In this document: piece by piece, positions 13,349 to 62,628 of the stretch | Numbering within the stretch: the stretch's first letter is position 1 | Layout of the letters: every line of letters starts with the position of its first letter | Assembly (NCBI GenBank): GCA_003427395.1 | Contig: BFEA01000012.1 | Span: 59,479-123,478 of the forward strand | Direction of reading: 5' to 3' | Origin: Chara braunii | Lineage: Eukaryota > Plantae > Charophyceae | Length of the DNA: 64,000 nt | Translations under genes and position numbers: made by a program | Notes under the pieces: generated by a model | What the model saw: only the letters and a program-made list of their open reading frames with translations | The model's database searches: none | What the model was told of the DNA's origin: nothing

Positions 13349-13360
13349 GCTCAGTCTTTC

Positions 13361-13373
13361 AAGGAGGGGGGGG
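13361..13373 (+). promoter_or_regulatory. Polypurine tract
   Basis: aaggagggggggg abuts the 3' LTR TG at 13374. Confidence 0.9.
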
Positions 13374-13794
13374 TGTGGCATACTGCGCACCACATAGGCC
13401 CAACCAGGTGATAAGTCAGGGCCCTCCAAACCCTGTGTCGTTCCAGCTTAAAAGCCTAAAAAGGAGGGTCATTTTCAAGCCCTCATAAAGTCGACCTTTC
13501 CTGAAACTTAGGCTCCAGACCAGGGATAAGCGCAGGCCACTTTTAGGCCCGTTTCAAGACAACCTTTTTTTGAACTTCAGCGCCAGGGTCTGGCACGATT
13601 CGGCATTGGCCAGAGCAGCCTCCCAGCCGGACCAGCACTATGTAGTACTGGTCCGGCCTGCAGGCTGCAGGCAGTTGAGGAGGCAGGAGGCAGTCTTCAG
13701 GATTCGGCCGCAGCACTCTGCAAGAGCGCTGCAGTAGTAGTAGCTAGCGTTAGGAGTGGTCTTCAACGCTTGATGCAGGAGCTTAGAGGAGCAT
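13374..13794 (+). repeat. 3' LTR, left part
   Basis: Matches 8887-9322. Confidence 0.92.
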
Positions 13795-15516
13795 TGTCGA
13801 GCGCATAGGTCCCTCACCACGCAGGGCGGGACCCTCCCGGCCGCGTCACTCAGGAGTTGGTCTACCTCGTCGCGAACACACATGGAGCTTCCACAAGACC
13901 GTCCGGCCGAGTGCGCCAACCGTACCTCTCGCGAGCCCCTACGACAAGATAGGGCCTACGCGAGGCACGACTTACTTCCACCTTGCGGGAGTTGTCACCT
14001 CCCTTCGGTGGGCGTATCCTCGCCGAGCTACCAGTCCACAGTACGAAAGCTAATCAGTTGCAATCGCAGAGGTGGACCAGCCGAGGGCATTTCTCGTTCG
14101 CTGTAGCATAGGGGGTACGCGCGGCCTCATGCCTGTATCGGACCCACACGCGAACCGACGCCTTGGGGGGCTGAGGTACCAAGCGCGACTCGTCGTCGGT
14201 CGACTAGGACGCATCCCACATACCACGCATTACACCACTTCACTCACATTTATAGAACGACACAAAACAAACAACACAACAACACTCCTAGTCCCTTTCG
14301 TAGTCCTCCCATAACCTTCTGACGCGGAAATCGGATAGGCGACGCGCGCAAGACTTAGTATAAAACCGCGCAGACGCAGGGCCTTCCCATATCGACTAGC
14401 AATGCATGAATACGCAAGCAGTCACAATGATGGCGTACTATACAGTGCCCATAATCAAGCGGTCCCTCGTGAATCTGAGTATCGCTTATGACACTCAAGT
14501 GTCAAATCGAAGTATCGTGAAGGTCAAGCCCTTCACGATATTGCACAGTTGAAGGAACAACCGTTCGGCCCCCGCTGCACCTTCGGCCCTTAGGCTGAGT
14601 GTCCCGGTGGGCAGGGCAAATAGGCTATGCGCAGGGGGTGATCCCTTCCGCGCGGAGTCTAGGACGTGGGATATCCTGGACAAGGACCTCGAATCCAAGC
14701 CCAGGACCAACGTCCGACTAAGAAACTTTTTTAAGAAGCAAACTGTAAAGGAAGTAAGCCTCCTTTCCTTTCTTGATCTGGACCCCAATTAAACCCTTGA
14801 GCGTGGGCTCCTTAGGCCACGTGAAACACCCAAACATAGGTATGTACGTACATATGTAGTGGGGAATACGTATGCGATGATCACTTCTCACAATCACGGT
14901 GGGACACCTCTCAGCCATATATCTGTGAGTGATCGTAGGCAATCAAATCCAAAGTCCGAATCACAGAACAAAACTGCAATCACACCAAAGATTCAACCAA
15001 AAGTCCACACACTACACGGGGTCAACTTCAACCATTCCCTATACTTATACCCCTTGCTTTAGGCATGCAAGCCCCAACCTTTGCCTAACCTTCCAGAAAA
15101 AATACTCAGCACTTTCGTTAAATGGCCATTCAATAAAAGTCCGGGTGAAAACCTTAACAAAACAATAGAAACCACCAGGGCTAAAACCTTTTAGGTCGGG
15201 TATTGAGAATGGATTGGAGTTGAGTCGTAAACCGACAAATCGGCAACCGACCTGTTATCGATGATAACAAAAGATGATCCTCGTAGGATCAAGCTGACTC
15301 TAGTCCGAATCCTGTAACACAAGACAGGCCAATCCCCAAGCTAAACCTATAAATCCACGGAGAATAACCTCCATAACACGATCTCACTCAACATCGTTCT
15401 TAATTAACTGAGTCTAAATTTATCCCTAAGCAAACATCTAAGGAAAAGGTAGATCCTAGCCGGATCTCCTCTATACAGAGTGGATCTTCAGAATCGTCAC
15501 TTGTCAAAATATAACC

Positions 15517-15915
15517 CATCTCCCTTAAACTAAGAAAATTTCTACAGCGCTTCCCGTAAGACTGAAATATTCTCTAACTCTTGAAAAGTCAGATTTTGTC
15601 TAACTCCCTGAATTAGTAAAAATTTGGGCAGCACTCCCTTTAGAAATGGAGACTTCCCAGATTTGTACTGAGTCAGATGCAAACTCAAAACAAAACTCGA
15701 GTCCAACTAAGACAATATTTAACTAACTCCTTAAATTTGTAAAAACTTGGGCAACACTCCCTTCAGAAAAAGAGACTTCCCAGATTCATACAAAGCTAAG
15801 TTCAGAACCTTAAATAACTTTGACTTCTCAAGGTGCGACTTTGTCTAACTCCTTGATTTAGTAAAAAATTGGGCAGCACTCCCTTTAGAAAATTAGACTT
15901 TCTAGATTTTTACCA
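15517..15915 (-). repeat. Second array in X2: 3-4 degenerate units at ~120-bp spacing
   Basis: ctaactcc..a.t.gtaaaa..tgggca.cactccctt.agaaa..agactt.c.agatt at ~15600, 15723 and 15845; homologous to 26680-26900. Confidence 0.8.
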
Positions 15916-16256
15916 AGCCATATATAAAAGTTAGACAAGGTAAAGTTTGAAAAGACAACCCAAGACCAAGTATAACAAATGATCCCAGAAAATGCAGAAA
16001 TCGACCTAAGTAAAATAAACTTAGCTCATAAAATGCAGGAATTGAAACTAACTCCTATGGCTCTAGCACTTGGCGAGCATCTAAAGCAACTACCTGTCAA
16101 CTGGAACTCAGACCAAGTACTAATCTCACTCAGCCACATGCAAGGCCAAACCACAAAGGTAAGTATTCTCACCAACCCAAAGTCAATCTTACCAAACAAT
16201 AGTTCATAGTCTTTCAATGATTTATCCCTTTATACCGACCTTACATAAGGCATAAA

Positions 16257-16985
16257 GCTAGACCACCCAAACTTATGGAACATGTCTAGCTCAACCATTG
16301 GATATACACAAACACAGGGCACTACAACTTTTCTCTTCCTTGGGCACGTGACTAGACCACCCTAGTCGCCCTGAACTGTTTAAGTATCCAAGTTTTATAT
16401 AATTATCTGCACTTCATCTTTTAAGGTAGCATATGACTGAACCGATCATCTTTAGCTCGAGGTTCAGCCTGCCCCTTCTTACCACAAGGTTTATTCTTAG
16501 TTAATACTCTCTTCAGTTTGTGATAAGCTATAGTCAGAACACCTAAACTTATGGAACAATGTCTGACTAACCAGTTCATAAATGAAGTAATAGTAAAATA
16601 TAGCCAAGTTATCACTTTTTGTTTCCAACATATGCGTGGCATTGGACCAAGACCACCCAAACTTATGGAACATGTCTCGTCCTCTGCCTGATTCATTTTT
16701 TCTTAATGGTAAAGTAGGAAGAGGTTGAGCCACCCAAACTTATGGAACATGCTCAGACCTCCTCGTTCAAAACCAAAAGAAACTGAAAAAACCCAAAATA
16801 AACAAGGCAACCAAGCCACCCACACTTATGGAACAGTGCTTGGTTCCCAAAAAGTCGACCACAGACAACCCTCACAAGTCAAAGCAATCAGACCACCCAA
16901 ACTTATGGAACATGTCTGGTTCTCCAGGCAATCGAAAAGTAAACATAGCACTGGGTCTCCCCCAACTTATGGAGACTTGCCCAGC
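16257..16985 (-). repeat. Hairpin array of X2 (7 units, core on minus strand atgttcc-ataagttt-gggtg)
   Basis: cacccaaacttatggaacat and variants at ~16263, 16540, 16653, 16730, 16818, 16893 and 16957, with co-varying flanks. Confidence 0.9.
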
Positions 16986-17323
16986 CTTTGATTGACCCAG
17001 TCAGACACAAGAAAAGCTGCCTTCCTCCCATCCTTCCCCCAGATGCAATCCCACAATCTGCTTGTAGTCAGACAATAAAACTGAAACTGACATTGCGCAT
17101 ACCTTCCTTTATTTAAGTCTACTTTAAGTCCTGAAAGTTAAACTCAAAATCAAAGTAAGGGTGCACGCAGTATACTCGGTCAAACAAGGAAAGCAATGGT
17201 TACCTCTAAAGTCCCTGCCTCCATAACTTCTCCTGAGTTCCAGCAGAGCTCCCGCAATCAGCGGGCTGACTTCCCACAGAGTCTTGTTGCAGTCCTACGA
17301 GTTGCAATCCCGCCTGCCGCCTT

Positions 17324-17812
17324 CCTCTCAGAACAGGACTGGACTTAGAGTAAGAAGGGCAGAAGGTAAGGGGTTTCAGACTCTCGAGATACAAGAAGTG
17401 GACAAACTCAACTCGCAGGAGAGGGCCTTGTTGTCTTCCATCGCCCGAGGGGCCCGCAATGGTGGCCAAAACTCGAAGCCGCTTGGTCAGCCAGGGTCAA
17501 AACGCCATTTGTTGACCTCCCCTTTTTAATGAGTCCCGCTACCTTGCCCGGCTCGAAACCCGGAGTATCCTCTTAGGACAGGACTAAACTTAGAGTAAGA
17601 AGGGCAGAAGGTAAGGGGTTTCAGACTCTCGAGATACAAGAAGGGGACAAACTCAACTCGCAGGAGAGGGCCTTGTTGTCTTCCACCGCCTGACGGCCCC
17701 GCAACGGTGGCCAAACCTCGAAGCCGCTTGGTCAGCCAGGGTCAAAATGCCATTTGTTCACCTCCCCTTTTTAACGAGTCCCGCTACCTTGCCCGACTGA
17801 AAACCCGGAGTA
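17324..17812 (-). repeat. ~245-bp tandem duplication in X2
   Basis: acaggact..acttagagtaagaagggcagaagg...aacccggagtat occurs twice. Confidence 0.9.
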
Positions 17813-20800
17813 TTCAAGCCATCAGTGCGCTTGCAACCTCGTGGCCCTTCCTCCAGCCACTTCGCTTAGTGGATGAACAACAATATGGAAGTATGCAGGC
17901 TAGTGGCCCTCCTTTTTGCCACTTCTTATCATCAGGAAAAAGAAACGCAGCAACCCTTAGGTAAATGCTCGAGTTTGCACCTCGCTTGCAACTTTTCTTT
18001 TTTCTTACTACTCTATTCAGTCAAATGAGTAGTGCCCCAGCTAAGGGTAAGTCTTCAACCTCCGCTGTCTTCAACCTCCGTTGTTGCCCCTTCACTGCCC
18101 CCCCCCCTTACCTGAAGTTTGAGCGGCATGCTTGCGTTCGAATGGTGTCACACAAGAAAACCGCACGAACTGGAGAGCACAGGGTGGCAAATTCAGTTTC
18201 GCTAAAAAGCAGACAACTGATAACAGTCACACGACGGTCGTCTTCCCCTCCTCCTACTTTGGACAGGCTCGCAGACCAATGCGCACGAACATATGTAGAC
18301 TTAAAACTCACCATCAATAGGAACTCGACAAGGCATACGTTCCATGAACAGAGCTCAGAAATCAACTCCGTCTCAGTCTTTGTCTCGTAGGTCATCATTC
18401 AAAACACCTTGACCCTCGTTATCACACAATTTACCACCATAGCTCTACTTTTGGTTCATCTCGCACCGCCATTCTTCCGAAGTAAGCGCCCCTTCTCCTT
18501 TTGGCACATGTGAGCATGCCCCTGACAGAGCTTCCCAACTGCGAGTTGAGAACGTATCTCCCGTTAGAAGATAGCCATGTGAGTATTTCGGTTGTAGGTG
18601 ACCTTCATGGCGACCAGGCCGTAACCTCTACGGCGAACATAAAAACTAAGCCGTGATGGTGGACGCAACGACGAACACAAGCCAGATTAAGCTAATAACC
18701 GTGATGATCAGCAGACGAACGAGCAACCATCCTCACGATGTCATCAGGTAAGAGCCCTCATTGCCTTCTTCCTTTCTTACTCCGACTACTGCTCCCCCAA
18801 CCATTAACAGTCTACGTATTTACCGTCCCTCCGTGGACGTCAACAGTCACAGCCATAATGTACGAAGTCGTCTACCCCGTAAATTATTGCCAAAAGGCCA
18901 AGTATGTATTCACTCCTTTCTATCCTCTCCTCCCTCTCTCTTGCATGGCTCACATGCTCATGCTATTCGTTTCTGTCGAACTTACGAAGTGGGAATAATT
19001 CTCCCGCTCTGGTATGGAAAGTTACACCGTCAATTTCAACCTCCTTGCCTAGCGCAACTTTTTTGTCCCGTTGTCGGCCCGAACACCCTTACAAGGGTAT
19101 TTGGGCGTACTTTTGCATCTCACAGAGGGTGCGTCTTCAACAATATCCGAGAGAGTGTCCCATTATCGAGTGACCACAACCAGCTCCCAGAGGTTGGGAG
19201 TGGCACTCGCATTTTTGATTAGATCAGAGGGTTTGTGAGCGTCCACTTTGTGGGCACGCATTAGTTCAAGTTTAGATGATTGATCAGTACAGATAACAAA
19301 CTGCTCGGCAGTCCCAGTTAGAAATAAGTTAGAATCTTGGACGACTCAGGCGTGAGTCGCAACCTTGGAGACGCTGACGGAGTCGCAGTCAGCGCAGAGT
19401 TTAACTATTGAGGCTGCGGCAAAAAGGGAAGACTTTTGGTTGACCTACTGAGAAGGCGGCATTTTGGGGCTGCACCGTATGGAGTGTGCAAGTACTAGGT
19501 CAGGCTATAATAAGTGTCGACGGTGGGAGCCGAGGAAAGCTTTAACTTGGTACGGCATGAGCAAAAGTCGGGGTCTTCCTAACCGAAGGGGGCAAAAGCG
19601 CGCTCGTTTGACGATTGTAAAGGGCTATGAAAGCCTCGGCCCGCGATCGCAGCATGGCGTGACAGTGCGTGTGATAGGCTGAGCGGTAACTTGTCCTCCA
19701 AGCAGCGAGTATGGTTGTGAGGGGCCTTGGGCTCAAGTAATAAGCCAAGCGGTGGTCTTGGCACACTTTTGCAGATCCGGGTAGGCTGCAACAGGCTGCA
19801 GTTACTATTCATATGGAAGACAGCGCCTGCTACACCCGGACTTGGGCCTAGCCCTATTGGTTAACGCATTGGACTTACAGCATGGAGGTCCTCGGATCGA
19901 GGCCAGCGAGCAGCAGAAGAGGAGCGAGGAGCGCGACTTGGAAGAAACTGAGGGGTTGAGGGTCCCGCGGGACTATCCACCTTCGTTTTGCGGGAAGATC
20001 CTACCACGGGCCCGATGGGAAGGATTAGGGGCAGGGTCCCGATGGTTCCTCCCCTCCCCTACTCCTTCTAGGTTTTATTAAATTATTATTATTACTATTA
20101 TTTTTCTTATTTCTTATTTAAAGTCCTGTCATGGGACGTGGTCTGGTACCGGTTTCGGGGCCGGTCGTGAAACCCCAAAAGCCTGGCTTAGTTGGTACAC
20201 CCATGAACTGTTGAAATACAGACCCGTGTTCGAATGCCAGCAGAGGGAACTTGATGGGTAAAAATCGGTTATTCTCCGAAGACCTTGGACCGGTCAGCTC
20301 AATGATGGTACCTCAGGGCCGTACAATGGCCCAGTCCTTCAGGACGTCCGCTAAAGTTGGAACGAACGGTGAAGGGGGACTGCGGGTGCGGACCTCCGAC
20401 TGACTTTCCCCGCTATATAACCGACCAGGTGGGTCGAAGCAGGTTGACGCCTTCCGGTTTATCATGAAACTGTTAGAAGTCTGACGCTACGAGGTGGCGA
20501 AGAGGAGAAACGGGGTGAAGAAAGGGAGAGCACAGGGAGTTGACGAGAGTAACGAGAGGAGGAAGGCTAGAGGATGAAGTGAAGGGGTTGGCAAGGAACA
20601 AGGGACGCTCTACTTCGCATCCGCCATCGGAGTTGGGCCTGCTGTATGGTCATACAGGCTCATATGGAAGTCGAAGCCTGAGATACGCGCGCTGGGAGTT
20701 GCGCTGATCTGGGGGAAGGAAAAGTTTGCCTCCCTCACAACCGTCATCCACACAGCATGGTTCGCCCCATCGCGAGCTAGTCATTATCGCAGTTGTGGCA

Positions 20801-21535
20801 ATGCTGCTCGCCTGGGTGTTGATCATGGTCTTCGTATGAGCAGTCAACAAGGTCATCACCCCGGTGCTCGCGTCCACTATTGTCCCTGTAGTTGCCATCG
20901 GAGCTCCGATGGTGGTCATCACCGCCAACATTGGTATCCCGTTGCGCATTCTCGTTCCAGTCCTTAAAGAGCGGATGCATCCGGTTCTCTTCCAGAGGAA
21001 GATTCATCCTCGTATTGCGTCTTTGGAAAGTCGGGCGGAGGCAGAGATCGGGCTACACGTGGCAGAGAGAGAATGAGAGAGGAGTGGAGTGAGGGAGATG
21101 TAAGAGACAGAGAGGTGAGAAGTTAGAGTACGGGTGTAGGACCAGAGAAAGAAAGAGGAATGAACGTAGACATGTATCCGCGCGAGGTGCATTCAAAGAA
21201 GGAAATGAGGTAGAAGATGACGAAGACGACAAATACGAATATGGTAAGGAAGAATGGAATGAATCTGGACGAGATCTCATGCCAGATACAGTCGACGATG
21301 GAGAGAGGTGAAAATTGAGGAGGCAGGAGTGGAAGAAACGCTTAACTCACTCGATTCTTATCGAAATCGAGTGAACTAAGGTTGTAGGTGGGGGTTTTCG
21401 GGGTGGGCGACCCCGAATCCGTAGTTAGTTTTGGTGTAAAACTAGTAGAAGAAGGAGTAACAGAGAAAAGAACTGTGCGAAAGGAGTTGACGAGGGAGAA
21501 AAGGGAATGGAGAGGAGTGCAAATCGAATTGATCG

Positions 21536-21858
21536 GCCGATTCTCGACCGTTTTCGACAAACAAAGATACTAAATGGGGGTTTGAGATCACTCTGGATTG
21601 TTTGGCCGCGTCAGAAGTTCAATCTGAACAGCGGAGTAATTAGTACGAGGTAAGAAGGCTGCGAGGNAGCAAAAGAGGGCGGGGGATGCTTGGATTTCGC
21701 CGATTCTCGACCGTTTTCAACAAACAAAGATACTAAACGGGGGTTTGAAATCACTCTGGATTGTTTGGCCGCGTCAGAAGTTCAATCTGAACAGCGGAGT
21801 AATTAGTACGAGGTAAGAAGGCTGCGCGGTAGCAAAAGAGGGCGGGGGATGCTTGGAT
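21536..21858 (+). repeat. ~162-bp tandem duplication in X3
   Basis: gccgattctcgaccgtttt...gggggatgcttggatt occurs twice. Confidence 0.92.
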
Positions 21859-24800
21859 TGTGCTAATGTATCTTTTCCTATTCTAGCGGGAGATACATTT
21901 TGGCTATGCATAGTTGTGAGTGTTGGAGCAGGGTCACGTGTTTCCTATGCGCGTGAACACTAGTTCGGTCCGTCGATACTTGTCCCGATCTCGTAGTTGT
22001 TCATCTCGATCCCGCTGGTTTTGTTGTACGTGCTCGAGATCGTCCTCAAAGTCCCGCTGGTGGGATCGCTGCTCGTCATCGCGATTTGGCCTTGCTTGGC
22101 ATCAAGATTCCGCTGTTGACCACGCTATTGCAGTGGCTCGTCGATCTAGGCGCTACATCCTCGGGGTAGTCGAGGCCGGGCTCTGCTGCCAGAGAGAGGG
22201 GGAGTGGGCACCTACCAATGAGCGAGCCTGCCCCAATGACCGGACAGATGCATGCCGAGGATAGAAGTCGTGCGAGGGGGAGTCGAGACAGGAAAAGGAC
22301 CGGAACGAAGAAGTGAAGGGGAGCCAGGAGGAGAAACGTGAAGAAGAAGCGAAGGAGACGGGGGGGGGGGATCAAGAGATAGCAAGTGCTAAACCTGGCG
22401 GACGTACCTTTCCTGATTCAAGCGAAAGACTCACTCTTGGGCGTTGTAGCGGGCGACCATAATGGCATGCATATTACCAGGTCTCGGGGAAGATTCATTC
22501 TCATTTTGCACATTTGGTGAGTAGTGGGGCGGGGCCCGTAACTGTCATCATCGCAAATCCCTACCCCGACGCTGGTTGTGTTTGCAAGGCAGTTGTTGTC
22601 ATCATGGTCCCCATGCTCGACGTGCCAGCTGTCTTCGTCAAGGTCTTCCTCGTAATACTGGCCTGCGAATCCAGTTCGCGGGGCTCGATTTTGCTCGCAT
22701 TACATCTCCAATTTGCACGTATCCTGTCGAGGTCTTGACCAAATTCGGAGGGAGTTGGATTATGGTAAAGGCGAAGAGGAGGTAAGCGCAGTGAGGGGAA
22801 AAGAGGGTGACACAAGCAAAGAGAAATGGGGAGTAGGAGGTGGTAGCACGTACCTGGTAGTGTATCTCCCCGTGATCAAGCAGAAGATTCATTTCGATTT
22901 TGCTCATCCTATCGATGGAAGTAGCGTGAGGCAGCGACAAGGTTGAAGACTTACCTGTATGGTGCGGTCTCCTGCAGTAGGAGTTCGGATGCATCTGGGT
23001 AAGTTCGGGCAAAGGATTCATTTACGTTATCGTGAGTAGGCTCAATAGTAATCAGAAAGGGACTAAGGAAGAGGGTACCTACCTTCGAAGACTGGACTTG
23101 AGTAGAGTTGGAGCCGTGAATTGCACAGTGAAGACTCGAATTGCAACTGCAGGGCTGCTGAGGGACGATCGAGAGGGATGCACAGCAGTCAGGCGCTGCA
23201 TTGGAGTCCTGCTGACAGGGAGGGTAACGACTGTTGAGTTGTTACTGATCTAGTTGCTGGGTTTCGGAGGTGTTTAACCTTGTTACACAGTTGAAGGCAA
23301 TGTTGTTATCTCACTACCGTGTATGCTGTTTTACTGTGGGTCTGATGTTAGTGCCGCTTTTTAGATGGTACAACTGATGAGCTAGAGTCTCATACATCTG
23401 CTGTTTGGTGAGGCCGCCGACACGGTTATTACTTACGGTCTGCCGTTGTAGAAATAAGCAGAACTCAGAAAACCCAGGTTGCTGCTGCGCCACTTCTGAG
23501 CAGTCCACTGCGCTTGTTATACTGTGCATTACGGAGCCAAATGTGCATTGCAGCATCGAACTAGTCCTACTATTGTGTGAGCCGCTGGTTCGCCAAGGTG
23601 TTGGGGAGCTTAGATTGCAAAGTTTGAGGCTGCCAGTCTCGTTGGTGGGCACTGGTCTGCTGCAGCAGTAGGTACTCAGGCTGTTCGGGGTTACATAGCG
23701 AAGTGTTGCTGCTGCGTAGGGCGTTGTCCTCACTGTGCACCATTGCTGTGCATCATTCCTGTTCCTCTTTACGACAAATTTGCTAGTTCGTTGCTGTATA
23801 CTTTTTGCGGTATCTTTTGGCCGCGGTTGTGCATTCATGGCGGATTACTGCTGTGCAGGGCGCCATTCTCAACTATGAACTGAGGTGGTGCGGAGCATTG
23901 TTCAGCACTACTGTTGAGCGCCGTCACTATTCCTTTCTTACGAAAAGGCCACTGGTTCTGGCATACCACTGTTATTTACGAAGTTTCTGCCACAAGATTG
24001 TGTTACTAGTAAACTGCGGTCGTACATCCAGGCTGCATTGCTGTTATGTTCAGTTGTTTGTTGGGCAGGCTGCGGCGGACTGCTGATTGATAGTCCACCT
24101 TGTTGTTGATACTAACGGACTATCGGTGATCCGTAAAGGTGCAATTGCAGTGTTGCCAACTCTTGTTGTTCGTTGGGAACCGCTGCTGTCATTCCTGCCT
24201 TCGTCTCAGCGGTCGTGCCCGTGGAACCCACTTAGGAGTATCCCAACGAAGTCTGGCCGTTGTGGAAGAAGTTGACAACCTGGGTGCTGCTGCTGTGGGA
24301 GGCAGTACTGTTCGCTGTACGCTGCTCCTGTGCGTCACAGCTGTGCTGGGCTACTACAGCCTGTTTCTGAATAGAGCACGGGGGTGTGCTCTATTCGAAA
24401 CGTGGGCCTTTCTAGGTTGTGTGGCTACATTTGGACGGAGGAAAGTACTGTAGCTTTGAGGGTGAGGTCAGACTCGGCAGAGGCGTTGGTGCTGCGACTT
24501 GGAGGGCAGTCAGGGGACTGTAGAGGCTGCATCCGACCGAGGTTTTGACTGTTTGCTGCTGCGTTTTTCCTGGCCATCATTGCGGGGCCCTCAGGAGCCG
24601 AAGGTAACAAGGCCCTCTCCTGCGAGTTGAGTCTGTCCCTCTCTTGGATCTCGAGAGTCTACTCTACCTCCTTCTACCCTTCTTACTCTAAGTCTAGTCT
24701 GAGGTTACGAGAGGAAGGCGGCAGGCGGGATTGAAACCCGTAATCCGAGCCAAGGCCTTTGAGGGAGGCACGCCCCACCGATTGCGGGAGCTCTGCCGGA

Positions 24801-25089
24801 GCCCAGGCGGGGTTATGGAGGCAGGGAACTTCAGGTATAAGCTTCGTCTGAAGCGTGGGATCCCTTCCCTAAACTATTATTCCTTTGGGCTATCTGAGAA
24901 CATAATTATGAAAGGATATTACCTTTTATTTTTTATTTTTGTTATGTATGTCAGGACATGCTTTTGAAAAGGTTAAATTAACAATTGTATATGAGAGATC
25001 AGATACACTTTAAGTGAATTCAAACAAAGGTGAATTGGGGGAAAGGTGGGAGGAAGGTGTTTTGCATGCTTTGACCGGGTCAACCCAAG

Positions 25090-26310
25090 GCTGAGTTCCC
25101 CTAGGTTGGTGTGGACTCAGTGCTATGTTTATTTTTGTTAGCTGGGCTGTCCGAATGACCTTTTTAGGATTGGGCCTACCCTAGGTTGGATGGCTCAGTC
25201 GCCGTTTCTTTAAGGGTTTCTGAACAGGGAACCGGACGCCCTAGTTTGGGAAGGTCGGCTTCCTTATGTTTCTTCTGTGGGTTCTTGAAACAGAATTGGG
25301 GCATTCTAGGTTGCGTGACCCCAGTCCTGTGTGTTTCTTCTGAGGGGGACAAAGGCATAAGGCTAAGCGTACCCTTAGGTTAGGGCGGCTCAGCCATAAG
25401 CTATGAACCAAATGGGTAACCAGAGTATAGAATTTGGTATATATTATTGAACTTATACCTTCTGACAGACCGAGCACCCTAGGTTGGGAAAGCTAGTCAG
25501 TATGTCGGGTAGAACAAAACGAGAAGAGAAATGAATGAAGAGTATAATGAAGGTAATTCGGGCAGGCTGAGCGTACCCTTAGGTTAGGGCGGCTCGGTCA
25601 TATGCTCGTGATAACAAAGGGGCAGAGAGTTAGTATAAATCTTTTTTTATTTTCCCTTCTAAACAAAAGGAAGAGTTGGATGTCTCCCGAGGTTGGGTAG
25701 GTCTGACTATCTGCCTAAGAAGAGAGAAAATCATAGAGTTTGTGCAAGTATTCATGGTTGCTTAAAATTGTTGTTACGGAGGCTAAGCGTACCCTTAGGT
25801 TAGGGCGGCTTAGCCATACGTCGTTGTACTCGTTCAGGCGGACCAGACGTACCCTTAGGCTAGGGCGGTCTGGTCGCATTGCCTTATGTGACCTAAATTG
25901 TATAGACTAACTAGGCGTACCCCTAGGTTGGGGCGGCCTAGTGATATGCCCTTGTCATTGATGTTATGTGGGTTGGACGTACCCTTAGGTTAGGGCGGTC
26001 TAACCATTTGTCGTTTGTGGTTGTCTAGGCAGGTTAAGCACACCCCTAGGTTGGGGCAGCTTAACCTTATGCCATATGTAACTTTGTTTAAAGCTGGCTA
26101 GGCACACCCCTAGGTTGGGGCAGTCTACCCTTATGCTTCATGTCGTCAGTTAAGCAGAAGCCAGACACACCCTTAGGTTAGGGCAGTCTGGTCATATGCT
26201 TTATATGTTATGTTGGGCACACCCTTAGGTTAGGGCAGCCCAGTTGTACGTGCTTTACTTCTTTACCTAGGCAGGCCAGGCATACCCTTAGGTTAGGGCC
26301 TTGTCTGACC
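25090..26310 (+). repeat. Hairpin array of X3 (~15 units, core gtacccY-taggtt-Rgggcg)
   Basis: The last nine units recur at ~60-bp spacing from 25780; outer stems differ between units but stay complementary. Confidence 0.93.
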
Positions 26311-26679
26311 ATATGCCATAAGAAAGGGGGACATAAAAGGGAAAAAGAACTGAGTGACTTAACGAACTACTTGGCTCAAAAATGATGTGGGATTGCGAGA
26401 GATGTTTGGTTGTGCATGCTTTGGGCTCTCACATTGGGGCATCTTTTGAATAGGTTAGTTGTTTTAGATGCTCGCCGAGAGCTGGAGCTATAGGTAGATG
26501 AGATGGATGATGGGAGGGAAGCTTGGGGCAGGATAGGACTGACCCTGCTAGGAATTAGGATCAGTGTCAGCTCACAATCTCATCTAGAGGTCGTGTAGAA
26601 TATCGCTGATTCTACTTACCAAGCAAGTGTCAGAAGTTAGTCCCAAGTATAGTTTTGCTTGGTCTATCTATTTTCAGCT

Positions 26680-26900
26680 TTGTAGAAATCTTGGCAGCCT
26701 CCTGTTCCTACGGGAAGCGCTGTCGAAATTTCTACAAATCTGAAAGAGTTAGTCAACTTTGGGACCATATGAATTCTGAAAAGACACTTTTCCTACGGGA
26801 AGCGCTGCCGAAATTTTGTAGAATTTAGGGAGAGTATTTCTGGCTATGAGAAACTTGGCAATCCACCCTGAGTAGGGGAGATGCTGCTGAAATTCTCCGT
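26680..26900 (+). repeat. Second array in X3
   Basis: tacgggaagcgctg.cgaaattt twice plus a degenerate third copy; reverse-complement homolog of 15517-15915. Confidence 0.75.
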
Positions 26901-29900
26901 AACTTGGCATCAATAAGGGAGGCTGAAAGTGAGGTTAGTAGAGGAGTTAGTCTATGAGCTGGAGCATGTTCTCCACTTGGAGTGAACATAGTAGTGGCTC
27001 TCTTTGACCCGTACTGTGATGCAGGTTTTCACATTCGATTGAAGGCTCGAATTGTTCGGCCTGATTCTACGAAAGGATCATTCTTCTGTTATCACTGATA
27101 ACAGGTCGGTTGCCGATTCGTCGGTTTACTACTCAACTTTCCAACTTCTCCTGCCTCTCAACCTAAGGCCTTCGCCCTTGCCAGGATTTATGTGTTTCTT
27201 TGAGTTTTCACCGAATTTCTTTATAAATGGCCATTTCGTAAAGACTGAGTACTTTTGTTGAGGCTGGGTGGGGAAATGGTTGGACTTGTGGGCATAAGGC
27301 AGGGTGTGAGCCGCAGAAGGCTGAAAAGTTGACCCCTTTAGTGTGTGTGATGCTGTTTGAATGTCGGATGAATGCAGGTATGTATGGGAGGAACTCGATT
27401 AAATATGTGGTGAATGATTATGTCTTGAGTTCAAATGAGCAAACCACACGACTGTCGTGAGAGTGAACTACCCCACAACCTTTTGTTTGAGTGAGATTGT
27501 CTTTTCCCATCCTGATAAAGTGATAGTCAGAGTGGGTGTACACACGGGTAATCAGGTTTTCACCTGCCAGCGTCAAGTACTCGCTTTTTCTTCTTCCTTA
27601 TTGTAGATTGTTTTGGTAGAACGATAAAGTTCCGGGCGGAAGGATTAACGTGTCGCTGGTGATGCGCCAGACAACTCACCACCGCTCCAAATTCCTTCCT
27701 GTCCTAGGGACCAATCTTACCCGCACCCTTTGGGATGCGCCGACATCACGATTGCTTACGCAAATCCGCATCGTTGGTCGGTATGCGTAGATTTTGCGTC
27801 CGCGCGGATTTATGTTAACCCATGCGCGTGACACTTACCAATTTCTGCGCTCGAAAGTTATGGGACGAGCGAAGAGGGCAAGCGCGCGTCACGGCTAGTA
27901 GACCCAAGTTTCGGCAGCGCGAAACGACGCAGGAGCAAAGGAATAAGCCTAGTCGGCCTATGGGGACCCATGTACGAGCCTCCAAAAGTCTCAAACATCG
28001 GGTTGCCCGTGGGTTTGAGTCTGAGCACCATCCGCACGCATCTTTCGCGTTGGCCTACCCTTCCCTTTTGGAACAACTATCAGACTATCTGCAGTCGTTT
28101 CCTCCTTAAGGTCTTCATGGTTGGACGTTGTAGTCCGTGGTAGCCGTCAAAGTCAAACCCCTTGATTTTGGCTACCACGACAACCCTAAAGCTGTCTACT
28201 CAACCCCTTTGCACAGGGTGCAGAAGAGGGTGTGGTCTTCAACCGCACATGGCGGTTGTCTGACGTCGAGAGATTACCCCTCAAAGCGCCTGTCAGCTGA
28301 CACTTCAGTGTCGAACTCGACCCTCGAGATTATCAAGGGCCGCGAGGTTACGAGTACCACATAGTACCCCATCACCGCGAATGCTTGCGTATGCCCGCAT
28401 GGCTGGTTGATATGAGGAGGCCATGCACTCGCACAACTCTTATACAAAAATCCAGCACGCGATACCTATCTGAGTCTTACGGCACAAAGTTATGGGTCGG
28501 ATACTGAAGGACTAGGAGTATTGTGGTGTTGTGGCGTCGTTTATGGTGTCTATCTTGTGTATCTCTGTATGTTATGTGGGGGTAGATGTGAGTGTTGTGG
28601 TGTACGCGTAGTATGCGTGATGCGTCCTAGTCGACCGGCGCCGAGTCGCGTTTGGGATCTCAGCCCCCCAGAACGTCGATTCGCGTACGGGTTCGATTTT
28701 CGGGCGTCCGACCGCACGTAACCCCCTATGCTACAGCGAACGAGAAACGCCCTCGGCTTGTCCACCTCTGCAATTGCATACGAAAAGCTTTCGCATGTGG
28801 TTCAGTAGCTCGACAGGGATACGCCCACCTAAGGGGTGGTGACAGCTCCCGCAGGCGGAGGTAAGCGGTGCCTCGCGTGACCCTGTCCTGTCGTAGGGGC
28901 TCGCGAGAGGTACGGTTGGCGCACTCGGCCGGAGCGGCAAACGCTCTCCGCGACAAGTCCTGCATAATCCTGCGTGACGTGGCCGGGAGGGTCCCCGTGC
29001 GGGACCGATGCGCTCGACACCGCAACACCTAACCGGCGCCCTTATCACAAAATCTAACTGCGCCACCAAACTCGCAACATTGCAAAACTCCCGTTTTGGA
29101 TCCTTCCTTGCCCGATTTCGTTGTGGAATGGCAAGATGCATGCTTTTTCACTCTCGTCTCCTTCTTTCCAAACATTTTTCGCGATATCCTTGCGCGCCCC
29201 GTTTCTCCATTAACCCAATTCTACTAACCCATCATCAAAACTGAATCTACAACGAATTCGCCAAGCCAAATAACCCCTAGTTCATATCTTCCCTCACCCG
29301 ATTTCGTCAAGAGTCGGGCGAGTTATTCATCTTTCCTTCCACCATTCTCCTTTGTTGCTCCGCCATCGCTACACTTTCTACACACTACTTTCTCTACTAA
29401 CCTCATAATCTATTAATCTAGCACTAAAACTAACAATGAATTTGAATTCGCCTGCGTCCTAAACCCCAATTTAGACTTTTCCCCGCTGAAACCGCCCTCC
29501 AAATGAGTGAGAACCGCCTTTCTTCCTCCTCACCATACTTCCCCAACACTCCTTTTTCATGGACGCATCCGGCGTGAAATTGCGCCTCGATTCATTCCTT
29601 CTTTCCCAGCACCGTACTCCCGTTTTCTTCCTTTACCCCGCCTCTATAGCCATTTTTTTTATCCCTTCAATGTTCCTACCGACCCGCCTGATTTCGTCAC
29701 GAATTGGGTAGGAACTCGAATCCTCTTCCCCCACGCTTCCGTCTAAGTCCGCCATCTTCGTCCGCATTTTTCGATTGCACCTTGGCGCGGATCCCACACA
29801 GGTTGATTCGTTTTTTTTTCTTCCTCGATTTACCTTGCTGCTTTCTGCACTCTTCTGTCCTCGACTTGGTGGCTGTCCCCTCCTCCTTCGTTGTCGGTCG

Positions 29901-31308
29901 CTTCCTGTCTGCGCCTAGGCACAACCCTACTTCTGTTGTGCAAGGTCGCACCTCCTCTACTCCCCTCCTTCCTGACTAGCGTTGCTTTCCATCAGTGGCC
30001 AACTACGCAGTGCTCCTCTCTCGATAACTGTCCAGCGGCCCCACAACGGCCGACTGTCTCAAGAAGCCCGGAAACGACCGGCGACTAGGCGGCCCAAAAA
30101 CCCACCGCTCTTATACTCAAGTCCCGACGGACAAGCTGCACTGCCGTGCTGCCGCAGCCTTCGCCGTGGTATCAAAGGCTCAATGCGCGTATTGGGCCTA
30201 CCACGCCCGTGGCCAACTCTTTTCGGGCCCCGAAGGCATACTCCCTCCCCCTCACGACTCTCTCTGCAGGCCGTGGCTCACGGGCGGTGTACCTCTTGGC
30301 TCGGATGGGCATACCCTCTCAACCTCTTTACAGCCAGTCAGCAGTTGGCGGACGACGCACCCACCGAAGGTCCCCCCCGCTGAGGTTTTACCTAGGTCAA
30401 ATGCACCACCAACTCGTATGCACATTGAACTCCTCGGTCCATGCTTCAAAGCGGTCAAAATAGAAAACCTTGCCAGCATCCCGATCATGCAAGGGACCCG
30501 TAGGTCAGCCAAAGGAGCGCGCTCTCAAGACCCTCGGCCGCCGTGACAACCTTTAAATCCGGCATCTCACCCGAGTAAGGAACGCTAGAATGCAAAGATA
30601 ATACTTCAATAAATAATAAAAAATTTAGAAACCTTTAATCGCCATATATGTCGAACGAGGAAAAGAGAGGCGCTAGCACCGTTCTAATGCCGCTGCCGAC
30701 AAACCAAAGGGGGATAGCCCCGCCGGGCCCTCAACCCCTCGGTCCCTTTGCGCTACTCTGATATCCCCGCGTAGCCGCTGCTCGATCTCGATCCCTGAAT
30801 CTCTTTGATGAAAGTCCAATGTCGTAACCAATAGTGCTAGGCCCGAGTTTGGGTCTAGTTTTGACGGATACCTAAATAGACCGATACTGTGCGACGCACA
30901 AACCTACCGAAACATTTTCGGAACCACATTGTTGTCGACGTCGTCCTCCGCACGTACGCACAAGTCACAGGCAAGCGCATCGATCAACGAGACCTTATCT
31001 TTTTAATCCTGGTGTAATAAAAAATAAAGATTTGGCCGGCGACCAACGCCGACTTTCACAATCATCAAAGGGAGAACAAATCATGCACGCCTCAAGTATG
31101 CGCGCCCACACACTCTCTTACTCTAGTCCACGCGCGCCTGAAGTATGCGCGCCCACACACTCTCTTACTCTAGTCAACAATTCAGCCAATCGTAAACCAC
31201 AGACACTGCCGCATCTCGCGCGATATACCTAAACTTTTAAATCAAACATATTTTCTGTTACTTGCAAAAACTAGGGCGGATACCCTTGTAAGGGTATTCG
31301 CACTGACA

Positions 31309-32379: not shown

Positions 32380-33315
32380 ATAGGTCCGGATCCCCGGTCC
32401 GGATACCAGTCCAGATCCCCTATACTGTCCGGAAAAAAACAAACAAACAAAAAACAAGGGTACATGGCAACATGCTTACAATACCTGAGTGACTGTTGTG
32501 CTACATCCTGTACTGCAGTGCGCACACTACGCACAGAATCTCATATGCATAAGCAGAAAATCATCTCTGTAGCGTCCCAATTTTAACAAATGTCCCAATG
32601 AACCCTCCTCCTCCTCCTCGTCATGTCCCCTTTCTTCTCCTCCTACGCCTCATCCTCAACTCTCCCTTCCTTTCTAGTCCTCGTCATCGTCAACTCCACC
32701 CTTCATTCCTTTCTCCCTCTCTTCCTCCCTCTCCTCCTCCCTCTCCTTCTGTCTTTTTTTTGCCAAATATTGGACCATTTTGCGATTTATGTGTGTCATC
32801 TTCACGCGAGGGCCATGCTAATCATCTCTGTATCGTCCCAATTTTAACAATTGTCCCAATGGACCCTCCTCCTCGTCAAGTCCCATTTCTCCTCCTCATC
32901 CTCCTACTCGTCGTCATCAACTCTCCCCTCCATTCTAGTCCTCGTCACTGTCAACTCCACCCTACTTTCCTTTCTCCCTCCCTTCCTCCCTGTCCTCCTC
33001 CCTCTCCTCCTCCTCCTTTGTTTTTTTTTCCTGCCAAATATTGGACAATTCGCGATTTTGACAAGGAGGAGGAGGAGGAGAAGGAGAGGAGGAGGAGAAG
33101 GAGAGGAGGAGAACAACAAAGGAGGGCGAAGTTGACAACGAGGAGGAGGAGAAGGAGACAAGAAAGAAAAGGAGGGCAAAGGTGACGAGGAGTAGGAGGA
33201 GGAGGACGGGAAAGGAGGGTGGAGTCGACAACGAGGAGGTTGAGGACAGGCCCGACAGGGAGAAAACACAAAACGGGGGGGTTGATGAGGAGCACAATGG
33301 CGAGGAAGAGAGAGA

Positions 33316-34697: not shown

Positions 34698-35343
34698 TAA
34701 CTTCGAAGACTGTGCAATGTGGATCGAGGAACGCGATTTCAAAGGGTGCTGGTTTGTGGTTCATAGGTGGTAGCTTGGGGACTGTGTGAACGATTCGACG
34801 AGTGTGGACCGTAGAGCATAGGACGGGAGTACGTGCAGAGGTAGAATAGGATGTCTCGAAGATGCCATATAGAGCACGCATGCTAATGTACGGGCTTGGC
34901 TTGTTGATCATCGACATTCGGATCATGATCTTAGCGACAACACTGTAAGTACAACTAAGATATTTGCAAAGATGCTGATCCCCTGCACACATTTAAATGG
35001 TAGTTGGCAATGAGTAAACTACGCTGGGATATCGTTACGACTTCATTGATTGCAGGTGCTTAAGAGGTATGCAAGGCTGTCTTCTATCTAGCATGATTCA
35101 TGATGAAAGAGGTAATTATAATAGGCATTTACGACCAACTATTCCGCATCCTCGTACGGATCGAGAGAGCCCTATTATGCTTAGGATGCGTCGTAGGATT
35201 TACTTCCGTGAAGTAGCGGACATTTGGGAGGGATTAGTGCAGATTCTGGTGAACTATGAAGTCAACATAAACATCTCAAATAATAGCACATGACATAGTT
35301 TTGCAAATGAAAGTGACGGTTTTTCAAGTATAGACCAACGATT

Positions 35344-37522
35344 GGCGTCAGTTGCCGTTGCCAGATAAAACCCCGCCAACCACCTGGGAAGAGGTGATGC
35401 GACAACCCCTCTTCGGCAATAGAAACATTACCGATGGAAACGGGAGGGTATACCGCAACTCTGATTCCCCATGGAATAGCTGGGTTAAAAAAGGTATAGT
35501 AAGGATAAAGGATCTATGGGACCTGGAGAACAAAAACTGGAAAACAACACTGCAATTGAGGGTCACCCTGAGGTACTGTCATGATATTGAGAGAAACTAG
35601 GACGAACTGATTTTTGCGGTCCCTCTTGATTGGGCCCGCATTTTGCGTAAGGGGCCGCAGCTGATAGAAGGGGACTGGGTTGTGATTCCGGGAGAAACTG
35701 AGAGTGTGGGCTGCGTGGTGGAAGTACGGGCTGACGAATCCCTGGTCAGCCTCCTCCACAAAGGGAAGGACAATGTCCTCTCTAAGTACACCCCGTAGGT
35801 GGTGAGGTGGTGTAAGAATGTGAAGGTGCACAAAATCCGCGTGATGAAGTCGAAGGACCTATGGGTCGCCTTTCAACCCGAGACACCTCTGAAGAACTCC
35901 CCCTCGACCCGGCAGAATGGCACTGGAGGCCCAAACATCGACCGCAGGCCACGCCAAACAAACAACTGCTCAGTCTGACTGTAAAAGATACATACCGGCT
36001 ACTACGCCCGAAAGTGAATTTGAGGGACGTGGTGAAGGCCCGATGGCAAACCCAGCTGAATGTCGGAAGAGACTCTCTGCGCCCTATCAGATGGTTTACA
36101 ACTACAAAATCTAAACCGGCGAAGTTCGCCTCACTACAATGGCAGATAGAACATCGCTGCCTCCCGACAAATAATTGGCTGGTCGACCGCACACACCTGG
36201 AGCAGAGAGGCTTGGCGTTGCCATGGTGCAAATCCTGTCACAGCGCCTTCCCCTCTCGAAGATCTCGGAAACGATCGAACATATTTTCCTACAGTGCCCA
36301 GGAGCGGTACTGACATGGCGGTGGTGGGACAGGATATGGAACCTTTTGGACACCGGATCCACCTGGCCATGGGATTGGAGAGCACTGCTCTGCGAGGCTC
36401 GGACCTCCCCTACAGACAGAGACTTTGAGAACAACATGTTCAAGACAAGCAGGAGAGCCATCATCTGGGCACTTTGGCGAAAACGTTGCATACATGCTAT
36501 CGAAGGGGTCCGGATAGAAGGGGAGGAGGTGACAAAAATGATCAGACAATTTATTAACCAAGAACTCCTTACCCGGTGGCAGAAAGTCAAAAGCCAATTG
36601 GACTGGTTGGGCAGCGACCAAGGGGGATGGATGGCAGGTATCTGGGATGGGGGACAAGTACAGGGGCAGGAACGGGATGATTTCCAAAGAGATTACTGCA
36701 TAAATTTTAACGATTGGACCAAAATTGACCAGCGGATCCCTCTCCGACCACCCACAGACTTCCCCGACCCCTTCCCACCCCACCAGCTGGAAATGGTGGA
36801 CATGCAATGGTACGGTGCGGCATGAACAGACGTTGACATCAGCCTGTTCTCAGCTTGTCTCCATGATGCTATCCTGCTTGGCGGTAAAGAAAAAAGGGAG
36901 AATAAATCGGCAAGGGAAGGAAGGAAGGAATATGATCTCCTGAGACAGACACTTGGGAAGGGCGGACCCGCCCAGCAGGGTTGCTTTTCAGAATCTCGAA
37001 GTGGGGGGAACCAGGAAGGGAGAGCAGATATTTGGCGCCGGGTGCAAGGGGCTGGCAGGATTATACCACACTTCTCCGGACATGCTTTGAACTTTGCCTA
37101 TGTAAGGGGCCAGGATTGTACCACACGTTCTGATGAGATCCGATGCGCTTGGAATTTTGTCTATGCAAGGGATGCTGGACCCGGTTTCCGGCAGGTGCTG
37201 TTCCCTGCCAAAAGCTCAGACGCTCGGCAAGGGACCCGCCCAGCAGTTTGGTTCTTCAGAATTTGGAAGTGGGGGGAGCCAGGAAGAGAGAGCAGATATC
37301 TGGCGCCAAGTGTAGGGTGAAGAGGCCCCCCCCCTCCCAACCTCCTGCAGGATCGGGCCACACCCTTCTGATGAAGATCTGATGTGATTTGAATTTTATC
37401 TATGTAAGGGACACTGGACGGTTTCCAGCAGGTGTTGCTCCCCACCAATAGATGGAGCCCTCCCCAGGTGCTAGCGGTGTCTGCTCGTACCAGCACTGCT
37501 AGCACTGACGGGTGTGTTTCTT

Positions 37523-37555: not shown

Positions 37556-37617
37556 AACGATTTAGGGTAGAATTATTCAAGGCTACGACCGAGACGGGGT
37601 TTCAATAAGAATACAAC

Positions 37618-37655
37618 CTGTCTCTTATACACATCTAGATGTGTATAAGAGACAG
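37618..37655. other. Nextera mate-pair junction adapter (two Tn5 mosaic ends); assembly artefact
   Basis: Exact CTGTCTCTTATACACATCT followed by AGATGTGTATAAGAGACAG. Confidence 0.98.
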
Positions 37656-38903
37656 GTACTGATCTGGTAAGATATATCTCACCAACAAACCGGCTGCCCA
37701 TGGGAGCGGCAACTACACGGCCCATACAGGCGGCTTCGGCGGCACCAACAGACAGTTGGGCAAACAAAACAAGCAAGGTGGAGGAGGGGGTACTGGCGGA
37801 CACACTAGCTGAGGCGGGAACTTAGGCATGAACAACACACGATACAACAGGGCATGTAAAGGAAAACCCTACCAGCAGAACTTCGTTGACCCACAGTTCG
37901 AAGAAATGAAGGAGCAACAGAGGCAAGCACGACAAGAGAAGCAGGAAATGGAGGAGAGGAGACAAACTGAAGAAGAAAAGAAGGTGAGGGAGGATGGGGA
38001 AGCACACTGAAACCAAGATTTTGCTACGAGAGCGGAGGAGCTCAAACAGCAACTAAAGGCTGATCTGCAGGAGGAGTGGAGAGCGAACAATGAAGAAGCA
38101 CACAAGGAGGTGAAGGCTACAAGGAACCGAAGAACGCGTGACTCGAAGACTCGCAGGGAAGGAAAGGGTGATAATATCGATGAAGGGGCAGGAAGAGGCA
38201 CACATCCGATTCACGTGTGAGCTAGACCACAACGATGGAAATGGAGTCAGACACGGAGGTTAGTGACACTACGACTGTCAGAAGATGATTTTGTTCTATT
38301 GCTCCCCTACGGGTGGTTGCAAGGGCCTACCTGCCAATTGTTCAAAAGAAGGGCTGATCGAGTACTGTATATCAGCCATAAGATAAACTGGGCTAAGAAG
38401 GCTCTCGGCCTCGGGAGGATATGTGAAAAGAAGGGGATTGAGTACACAAAGAAACCTGAGGTTGTGGAGCTTTTGGCAAGGCAGTAGGTGCAGCAGTGGA
38501 CACAACAATTAAGGCCAAGGCCGACCCGACAGCGAAGGAGGTTATGAAAGATAAGGTGGTCCACCAATCGCCTGCTCTGCAACAACCAAGAGTGATTCTC
38601 CAATCGACACCAATCCAACCTACCAAAGACTCAAGTTGATGGTGTGCAGCCCCACAGGCGGTGAGCTTTGGGATACTCTGTCCACATGGCTTGAGTACCG
38701 TGCAGATTTACGGGGGCTAGGTATTTCTGGCGAAGTCCACAGGACGTTTTGTGGGTGGGCAAAACAGGTAGAGGGATTCCACATGTTGCTCTTGTGTGGG
38801 GTCATGTCAATCAAATGTTGAACTTTTTTTTGCAGTAATGTGATACTTTTGATGTTTCTGCACTGGCGTATGGCTGCCAGGATTGTGTGCCCCGCAGTTC
38901 ACC

Positions 38904-62444: not shown

Positions 62445-62628
62445 TACAGCTTGCAATGTAACTTATCATACAATAAATATTTCCGTGAACATCAGCATAT
62501 CACACATGATGATCTGGCAGCACGAAATAAAGGGATACGGCTTGCAATGTAACTTATCATACAATAAATATTTCCGTGAACATCAGCATAGCACACATGA
62601 TGATCTGGGAGCACGAAATAAAGGGATA
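62445..62628 (+). repeat. 91-bp tandem duplication
   Basis: tac.gcttgcaatgtaacttatcatac...cacgaaataaagggatac occurs twice. Confidence 0.92.

Follow-up and report, generated by a model that had tools for sequence, protein, structure and literature searches.

An array of compensated hairpins in a large, repeated mobile element of Chara braunii

Introduction

Does a run of similar hairpins in the DNA of Chara braunii mark selection on a fold that presents one loop many times, and if it does, is the fold formed by RNA or by DNA, and in what kind of element? The question was raised by an earlier note, made from the letters alone, on a stretch of 64,000 nucleotides of repeat-rich eukaryotic DNA (the window). 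The selection on a repeated, loop-presenting fold proposed there was supported by arm swaps, covariation, the identity of the loop and the presence of arrays in two sister copies. That the array is real and under structural selection is well supported, and the element that carries it, element C, matches no family tested. The analysis rests on three copies of the element in the window and on public reads mapped to copy C.

Beyond yeast Ty1/Ty3, little is known of how LTR elements of plants, and the non-autonomous elements that travel with them, choose their own RNA. The array separates scaffold from read-out by natural variation, with up to 17 repeats per copy and, by estimate, hundreds of copies per genome, and this separation makes it a natural test system for a loop-reading protein. 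The element itself, abundant and unclassified, is flagged here in the complex alga most closely related to land plants; it would be of record size if it is an LTR and is of unusual anatomy if it is not. A new pair of RNA hairpin and protein, if true, would be usable as an orthogonal tag.

Table 1. Positions in the window of element C, its sister copies and their parts
Feature	Positions	Strand	Remarks
Element C (X3 of the earlier note)	19072..29019	+	9,948 bp, ends TGTCG...CGACA
Left subterminal hairpin	19077..19106	+	upper stem ACCCT-TACA-AGGGT
Promoter-like block, conserved	19850..20430	+	function predicted from motifs
Variable interior, read on the - strand	20500..24580	-	decayed Q/A/S-rich frame
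Conserved block between interior and array	24571..24830	.	from family comparison
Hairpin array 1 of element C	25087..26314	+	17 units
Second, longer hairpin repeat	26672..26830	+	27-nt arms, apical TTCC-TACG-GGAA
Conserved non-coding terminal domain	28298..29019	+	72% identical to sister copy
Sister copy, 3' part (B)	13795..19071	-	ends ...CTCGACA
Array in sister copy B	16252..16989	-	7 units, loop TAAGTT, U.G in upper stem
Degenerate unit of the copy B array	16431-16472		covariance-model match, E 0.14
Sister copy, 5' part (D)	29020..31308	-	begins TGTCAG
Sister copy A	2981..8886	+	left end TGTCGG, TAGC to its left
Array in sister copy A	8401..8887	+	6 units, loop TAAGTT

Layout of the array

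Each unit of the array consists of an outer stem of 6-9 bp, an asymmetric internal loop that is mostly 3x2, an upper stem of 3-4 bp rich in C:G pairs, and the hexaloop TAGGTT. The loops of units 1-9 start at 25102, 25182, 25242, 25307, 25376, 25480, 25580, 25689 and 25796, and those of units 10-17 at 25856, 25924, 25986, 26047, 26111, 26174, 26226 and 26289. When the core pattern CCYTAGGTTRGG was searched with one mismatch allowed, 21 matches were found in the window against 1.17 expected, a number reached in none of 100 shuffles; 16 of the 21 lay within 25099-26297, every one on the + strand.

The repeated array of about 15 units described in the earlier note was confirmed with a count of 17, and the five stems quoted there (25780, 25841, 25909, 25971 and 26031) were all found in their places. 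The period of about 60 nt held at the two ends of the array, where the units are spaced by 52-80 nt, but not in the middle, where the spacing is 100-109 nt. The spacers had been called unique and AT-rich. They are indeed U-rich, yet they are not fully unique because they have a common start, ATATGC or TTATGC.

Compensation within the stems

In the arm-swap test the 3' arms were exchanged among units 20,000 times, which asks whether an arm fits its own partner rather than the family consensus. Eleven of the 17 units have a register in common; their outer pairs were Watson-Crick in 66 of 77 cases, whereas swapping gave 43.5 on average and never more than 61. When all 29 units of the three copies were used and the register was chosen per unit, the count was 166 of 203 pairs versus 91.5 with swapped arms. 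Neighbours were compared among the eight regular units (25796-26226), the nine others being excluded for irregular register. A change was seen in 25 of 49 comparisons; the pair was kept in 23 of the 25, and both sides had changed in 18 of those 23. The claim that the outer stems differ and yet stay paired was borne out by the swaps and by these kept pairs. Identity across the same eight units fell from 0.96 for the loop through 0.87 for the upper stem and 0.58 for the outer arms to 0.47 for the flanks.

A fixed alignment of the 29 units showed changes on both sides at all eight outer pairs and at two of the four inner pairs. Covariation on this alignment was 0.506 versus 0.287, every slid register was worse, and none of 500 shuffles was as high, a result that is not a probability because related sequences can beat such shuffles. 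The pair that closes the loop is Watson-Crick in 28 of 29 units, being C:G in 14, U:A in 8 and A:U in 6. RNAalifold, unaided, predicted the same helices, with double changes in six of seven predicted pairs. The reported co-variation of the internal loop (GTA/CG versus ACA/CA) proved to be a linked variant of neighbouring units and not base-pair covariation.

The possibility was considered that the array has no function and that local duplication of units, together with template switching at imperfect palindromes, mimics compensation. Units were duplicated, since neighbours share internal-loop variants and spacer starts; the paired changes are nearly all transitions, as either process would produce, and the excess of G.T pairs described below is weak. 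However, three copies whose best blocks are about 70-78% identical have all retained the asymmetric internal loop and the loop sequence, and the kept asymmetry argues against palindrome repair, which would not preserve it. Loop and upper stem are also more conserved than arms and flanks, and the loop-closing pair took three Watson-Crick states. An array devoid of function is considered improbable.

Arrays in the sister copies

A covariance model was built from the 29 units of the three copies and used in a filter-free search of the window. Of the 37 matches with E no higher than 5, the 30 with E below 0.002 were all inside the three arrays and on the + sense strand of the element; 29 of them were training units and one, at 8856-8887 in copy A, was new. 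The last hairpin of the copy A array is cut by a Gypsy insertion. In three diverged copies the array has kept its place and its strand, and the first units of the B and C arrays are orthologous, with one compensated pair. The best blocks among copies A, B and C are 70-78% identical, and the presence of arrays in all three indicates that the fold is older than their split.

The loop is TAAGTT in copies A and B and TAGGTT in C. The fixed hexaloop of the earlier note is thus fixed within one copy but not across the family, where the 29 units comprise 14 TAGGTT, 10 TAAGTT and 5 variants. Each copy has homogenised its own loop.

Two unit patterns matched 0 stretches in viral contigs. Rfam covariance models gave nothing at gathering score over the array or element C, the best match over the array having E 2.4. 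No account of the element or the array was found in the literature covered; the Chara genome paper, its supplements and Repbase lay outside that coverage, and an earlier name is possible. The array is family-wide and apparently undescribed.

Ends, nesting and abundance of the element

The left end of element C is TGTCGG at 19072 and its right end TCGACA at 29019; the flanks are CCGT and CCGC, a 4-bp target duplication with one mismatch. A contig of DNA run X1 continues into other sequence exactly at the right end, 29019. Within element C no terminal repeats and no recognisable enzyme were found; no match was seen between its first 150 and its last 150 bases, and the common inverted repeat is just 4-5 bp. 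A comparison of the ends with the interior for an internal complementary region like that of DIRS elements gave no match above chance.

Parts D and B form one sister copy of 7,566 bp that is split by element C. Its flanks are ACGC and ATGC, and it lies within the 3' LTR of a Gypsy element. In the uninterrupted 5' LTR of the same Gypsy, ACGC occurs once, which identifies the flanks as a 4-bp duplication. Copy A resumes after 32303 and again near 33980, and its right end lies beyond the window. There are accordingly four levels of nesting at 2981-34140: copy A contains the Gypsy element (8887-32298, duplication TCTAG), which holds D+B in its 3' LTR, which in turn holds element C. A gag-like frame at 10874-11836 has 112 relatives, all from Chara braunii besides the window's own protein; when metagenome contigs were searched with the neighbouring gag protein, 389 matches to its pattern came up and 0 loci were confirmed.

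Summed contig depth in DNA run X1 rose from 12-45 across most of the interior to 3,400-15,000 at the array and 100,000-230,000 within conserved blocks. Dividing by the low-depth median gives estimates of about 90-400 for close arrays and of several thousand for right ends, which hold to an order of magnitude only. The depth suggests that the element is present in hundreds to thousands of copies in Chara braunii.

Anatomy of the element

The left subterminal hairpin has kept its upper stem in all three copies, and its lower stem is different but paired in each. Its CCCT/AGGG upper stem is that of many array units, and its loop has four nucleotides, not six. In the promoter-like block, two ATTGG motifs (reverse CCAAT) are common to the three copies, and a TATA-like motif lies at 20414. 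The TATA that had been placed upstream of the array did not hold up: the candidate, GGTATAAG near 24835, is without counterpart in sister copies A and B. No conserved TATA stands beside the array; the conserved CCAAT-/TATA-like block is near the left end instead. No AATAAA was found on the + strand of element C.

On the - strand, family conservation ends exactly at an ATG (24580-24578) in all three copies, and beyond it each copy has a different decayed, low-complexity frame, so that the interior of element C is nearly copy-specific. Donor-like sites in the interior number eight on the - strand versus one on the other. Among 26 interior frames of the three copies, none had a relevant Pfam match, and no transposase, integrase, HUH or RNA-binding domain was found. 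A search of 1.8 billion proteins with the interior protein returned a sole match, a repeat-driven chance match; two sets of protein candidates for the interior gave 0 of 32 and 0 of 942 that scored, and there was no usable Atlas match.

Repeats related to the second hairpin repeat are present in both sister copies. The terminal domain ends in a subterminal hairpin at 28990-29006. With this second hairpin family and the 720-bp terminal domain, the right half has the look of structured non-coding sequence over about 4.4 kb. Covariation within that domain (5 versus a shuffled mean of 3.2, largest 8) was within the shuffled range, and its pattern had 0 matches in metagenome contigs.

Several small features were observed within the copies. 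A block at 3860-3925 and 20180-20240 (+), common to A and C at 71% identity, has box A-/box B-like words and a tRNA-like look; neither ARAGORN nor Rfam found a tRNA there. A weak U6-like stretch (E 0.043) lies at 4006-4102 (+) within copy A, and visual inspection shows a shorter one near 20335 in C. Outside these, U6 snRNA-like copies that exceed the Rfam gathering score are present at 2457-2562 (+) and 32764-32864 (-), with a partial duplicate at 32540-32600 (-). A motif of about 45 nt recurs in the interiors of A and C (22488-22537, 22880-22932, 20998, 5027, 5743-5870 and 6427). Contig depth over it is near 70,000, and both strands have reads. Its - strand translation, which resembles KMRMNLLLEHG, stands next to donor sites and had no protein match.

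Elsewhere in the window, 40515-50604 is a Gypsy element with reverse transcriptase and integrase matches, PBS, PPT and a 4-bp duplication, into which a LINE-type reverse transcriptase fragment is apparently inserted at about 45950-47040. A LINE-like element with endonuclease and zf-RVT matches lies at 53893-57600 (+), and similar fragments occur near 35300-36800 and 60000-61700. The stretch 50605-52000 is a more distant relative of the element interior (71% over 127 nt to 18262-18383); it has a GACCC-GCAA-GGGT hairpin near 51000, and no array was found there. A short frame at about 62725-62820 (-) is like a plant leucine-rich-repeat exon and could be part of a host gene with introns that take in much of the window. 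The perfect 42-nt palindrome at 37616-37657 resembles a mate-pair junction adapter and is presumably an assembly contaminant. Two-copy tandem duplications of 91-245 bp with 93-96% identity lie at 992-1211, 4544-4823, 17323-17813, 21536-21859, 47582-47954 and 62445-62629; one has an N at the joint, and they are possibly assembly joins rather than biology.

Strand, transcription and the nature of the fold

Over 12 pairs in 29 units (348 cells), G.T exceeded A.C by 35 to 16 (p 0.011 at parity). Against the regional composition (0.63) the p value was 0.25, slid controls leaned to G.T too, and the excess could reflect base composition because the + strand is G/T-rich. The earlier note's G.T excess on the + strand is thus present overall but modest, being 18:8 in the array of element C alone, and not significant against composition; the units counted are also related to one another. 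With RNA parameters the + fold was the more stable in 18 of 29 units, including 11 of the 12 in copies A and B, whereas in element C the - strand fold was better in 10 of 17. With DNA parameters the sense fold was better in 13 of 29 units, neither strand being preferred. The + fold was preferred in six of seven windows of the second hairpin family, and folding of the terminal domain gave -137.1 on the + strand versus -118.0 on the - strand. Shuffle z scores were -6.12 for the - strand versus -1.58 for the + strand, and likewise -7.4 versus -3.7.

In the polyA runs X6 and X8 the first mate lay on the - strand over 24551-24791 (24.9 versus 0.66, and 49.6 versus 0.3), as did nearly all first mates over 24551-25032. 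The conserved block between interior and array is the sole part with one-sided polyA reads in both runs. Over the array itself these stranded runs gave about 3 and 7 reads, all with the first mate on the - strand. In most stranded libraries a first mate on the - strand denotes + strand RNA, and the X6 and X8 reads represent + RNA if their polarity, which is assumed, is the usual one. At three of four inspected sites these reads carry B-type letters, so divergence from C may be all that lies behind the drop in depth at the array. The depth of run X7 tracks that of the DNA, with no strand preference over the array (52.5 versus 48.9) and the opposite lean to its right (367 versus 238). Over the copy-specific interior X7 is one-sided, again with the opposite lean to X6 and X8, and molecule ends pile up at 24637. 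Both strands may be transcribed.

These reads bear on the reading that the hairpins are RNA that regulates expression, as a TAR-like, export or scaffold array near a transcript start on either strand, for example in the leader or an intron of a - strand gene starting at 24580. The array lies about 500 nt from the - strand ATG where family conservation ends, the donor-like sites favour the - strand, - strand folds are equal or better in C, and X7 supplies one-sided interior reads and the pile of molecule ends. Additionally, an upper stem with hexaloop and small bulge resembles HIV TAR and the iron-responsive element. Yet the donor sites that flank the array are not aligned between B and C, by which an array within an orthologous intron was rejected; 11 of 12 units in A and B fold better on the + strand, and no intact reading frame or RNA-binding domain was found. 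A regulatory RNA is rather unlikely on this evidence.

An unlikely alternative on the DNA side is that the hairpins act as single-stranded hairpins or cruciforms for a transposase or replication protein, or as duplex binding sites like the palindromes of Sireviruses. Subterminal hairpins with compensated stems stand at both ends of the element, DNA parameters show no strand preference, and the element is without an LTR pair and has a variable interior. The LTR palindromes of Sireviruses, in the excerpted account, conserve structure and not sequence (PMC4728375). However, a duplex site would keep its sequence, and here the outer arms are 58% identical yet paired; the tolerated G.T pairs, the U-richness of the spacers and, in the second hairpin family, a loop of UNCG type fit RNA, and neither a transposase nor a HUH protein was found.

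The fold thus probably acts as RNA rather than DNA, and the + strand is favoured as the RNA strand. For the earlier proposal of a + strand RNA, the G.T count and the folds of A and B stand in favour; the base composition, the folds of C and the X7 reads do not. Since inserted copies decay, the surviving pairing was most likely selected during replication, in single-stranded form, and selection on a single-stranded fold in the course of element replication is considered highly likely.

Proposed function

A free stem sequence combined with a fixed loop and internal loop is typical of hairpins that bind proteins, as established for MS2, TAR and the iron-responsive element. The reading preferred here, at somewhat less than an even chance, is that the array is an RNA handle, multivalent and specific to its subfamily, within the leader of a giant unit that resembles a solo LTR. 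The + strand transcript would display the same loop many times; a protein of the element itself, or of an autonomous helper, would recognise the handle, and the RNA would thereby be selected for copying. The stem would serve as a scaffold whatever its sequence, the read-out would consist of the hexaloop, the C:G stem next to it and the internal loop, and the change between TAGGTT and TAAGTT would act as a subfamily key. Repetition of the hairpin would provide avidity, and the array would be placed in the R/U5-like half of a giant solo LTR. Gag binding or packaging by the array is conjectural and presumes that the element is an LTR, which is plausible. No array-binding protein was found in the Pfam, protein-database and candidate searches of the element's frames.

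Kissing-loop dimerisation, also put forward in the earlier note, did not stand. A retroviral dimer-initiation hairpin is defined by a self-complementary loop, and UAGGUU and UAAGUU self-pair at two of six positions each. Other origins and partners of the loop were considered and rejected. TTAGG-like words of a telomere repeat occur in C-type units only, not in A or B; CTAAC, as expected of a branch-point array on the - strand, occurs in some C units only; and AACCTA, a distant complement with which the loop could pair, occurs once in C with no matching change in the sister copy.

It is highly improbable that the array is a source of hairpin small RNAs or a decoy for host silencing proteins. 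The LTR palindromes of Sireviruses are siRNA hotspots and predicted hairpin precursors in the excerpted account (PMC4728375), which would suit such a role. Here, however, the stem sequences differ among units while the loop is fixed. Moreover, stems of about 11-13 bp with an internal loop are below the length of a Dicer product.

Class of the element and comparison with known systems

A solo LTR is a serious candidate, at a little under an even chance. The ends (TGTCG...CGACA in C, TGTC...GACA in D+B) fit, as does the 4-5 bp duplication in C and D+B, each with one mismatch. PBS, PPT or gag-pol stood beside the ends in none of the two complete copies in the window. Lengths of 9,948 and 7,566 bp are outside the usual LTR range: in 15 plant species the median LTR is 552 bp, with peaks near 300 and 1,000 bp (PMC7251063), and the element is more than ten times this median. 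Candidate U3-R-U5 features are the CCAAT-/TATA-like motifs near the left end and the one-sided polyA reads at 24551-25032, with the AATAAA lacking as noted. Like a solo Ty3/Gypsy LTR, the element has TG...CA ends, a 4-5 bp inverted repeat and a 4-bp duplication as in the Gypsy of the window (PMC3601003, PMC7251063), and a variable left half with a conserved, structured right half. It differs in its 7.6-9.9 kb, the absence of a visible parent, the copy-specific interior and the antisense, spliced-looking gene. If the unit is an LTR, the array is placed where retroviral R/U5 stem-loops are (PMC3601003).

A non-autonomous, integrase-type DNA element is possible with a lesser probability, and the copy-specific interior suits a cargo-carrying DNA element. 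Ginger1 and GingerRoot share LTR-like termini, multi-kb size and a short duplication, and GingerRoot also variable cargo (PMC2836005, PMC6839031). Ginger1 needs terminal inverted repeats of 40-270 bp, compared with 4-5 bp here (PMC2836005), and a CCGG- or CCGT-specific duplication, compared with CCGT/CCGC in C, ACGC in D+B and TAGC left of copy A. GingerRoot needs a 6-bp duplication and inverted repeats of 100-150 bp, neither of which is seen here (PMC6839031). An integrase-like DDE transposase of either kind was found by Pfam in 0 of 26 frames, and the copies may be non-autonomous.

An undescribed class of mobile element is unlikely. Equally unlikely is the bolder conjecture that the 7.6-9.9 kb TGTC...GACA units are an undescribed element, neither LTR pair nor TIR transposon, with a swappable cargo gene on one strand and about 4.4 kb of structured RNA on the other, in which the loop UAGGUU/UAAGUU would co-evolve with a subfamily-specific binding protein as a natural MS2-style tag.

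Chlamys Penelope-like elements are abundant in C. braunii and form 5'-truncated partial tandems as pseudo-LTRs with an RT + GIY-YIG gene, whereas element C has defined ends, 4-bp duplications, no tandem copies and no RT (PMC8557442). For Retand, nothing on hairpins was found in the excerpt of PMC3290532. The RM of Sireviruses are short palindromes that have a CGG-CCG core, lie immediately before a conserved TATA and have been interpreted as cis-elements at the DNA level (PMC2829016, PMC4728375). They likewise are many symmetric motif copies in the non-coding part of a plant mobile element in which structure is kept and sequence varies. The units of the present array differ as interrupted hairpins without the CGG-CCG core or an adjacent conserved TATA, with an asymmetric internal loop, a fixed hexaloop and unit-by-unit compensation. 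The TRIMs Cassandra, Helenus and Ajax are below 1,000 bp and have two LTRs, PBS, PPT and a tRNA- or 5S-derived part (PMC10886601). They are comparable as non-autonomous LTR elements with sequence derived from small RNA, copy A having its weak U6-like stretch. A TRIM was rejected: the size and anatomy of the element differ, ARAGORN finds no tRNA, and the U6-like match is in copy A only.

HIV TAR, the iron-responsive element and the MS2 operator occur in single or few copies, with other loop sequences. The array shares with them a lower stem, a small bulge or internal loop, a short upper stem and a fixed loop, which in those systems is read by a protein; it differs from them in loop sequence and copy number, and it matches no Rfam family. 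CsrB/RsmZ, the Xist A-repeat and roX likewise present many loops on hairpins joined by unstructured, often U- or A-rich spacers. These are host non-coding RNAs, whereas the present array lies in a high-copy mobile element and has a loop without GGA.
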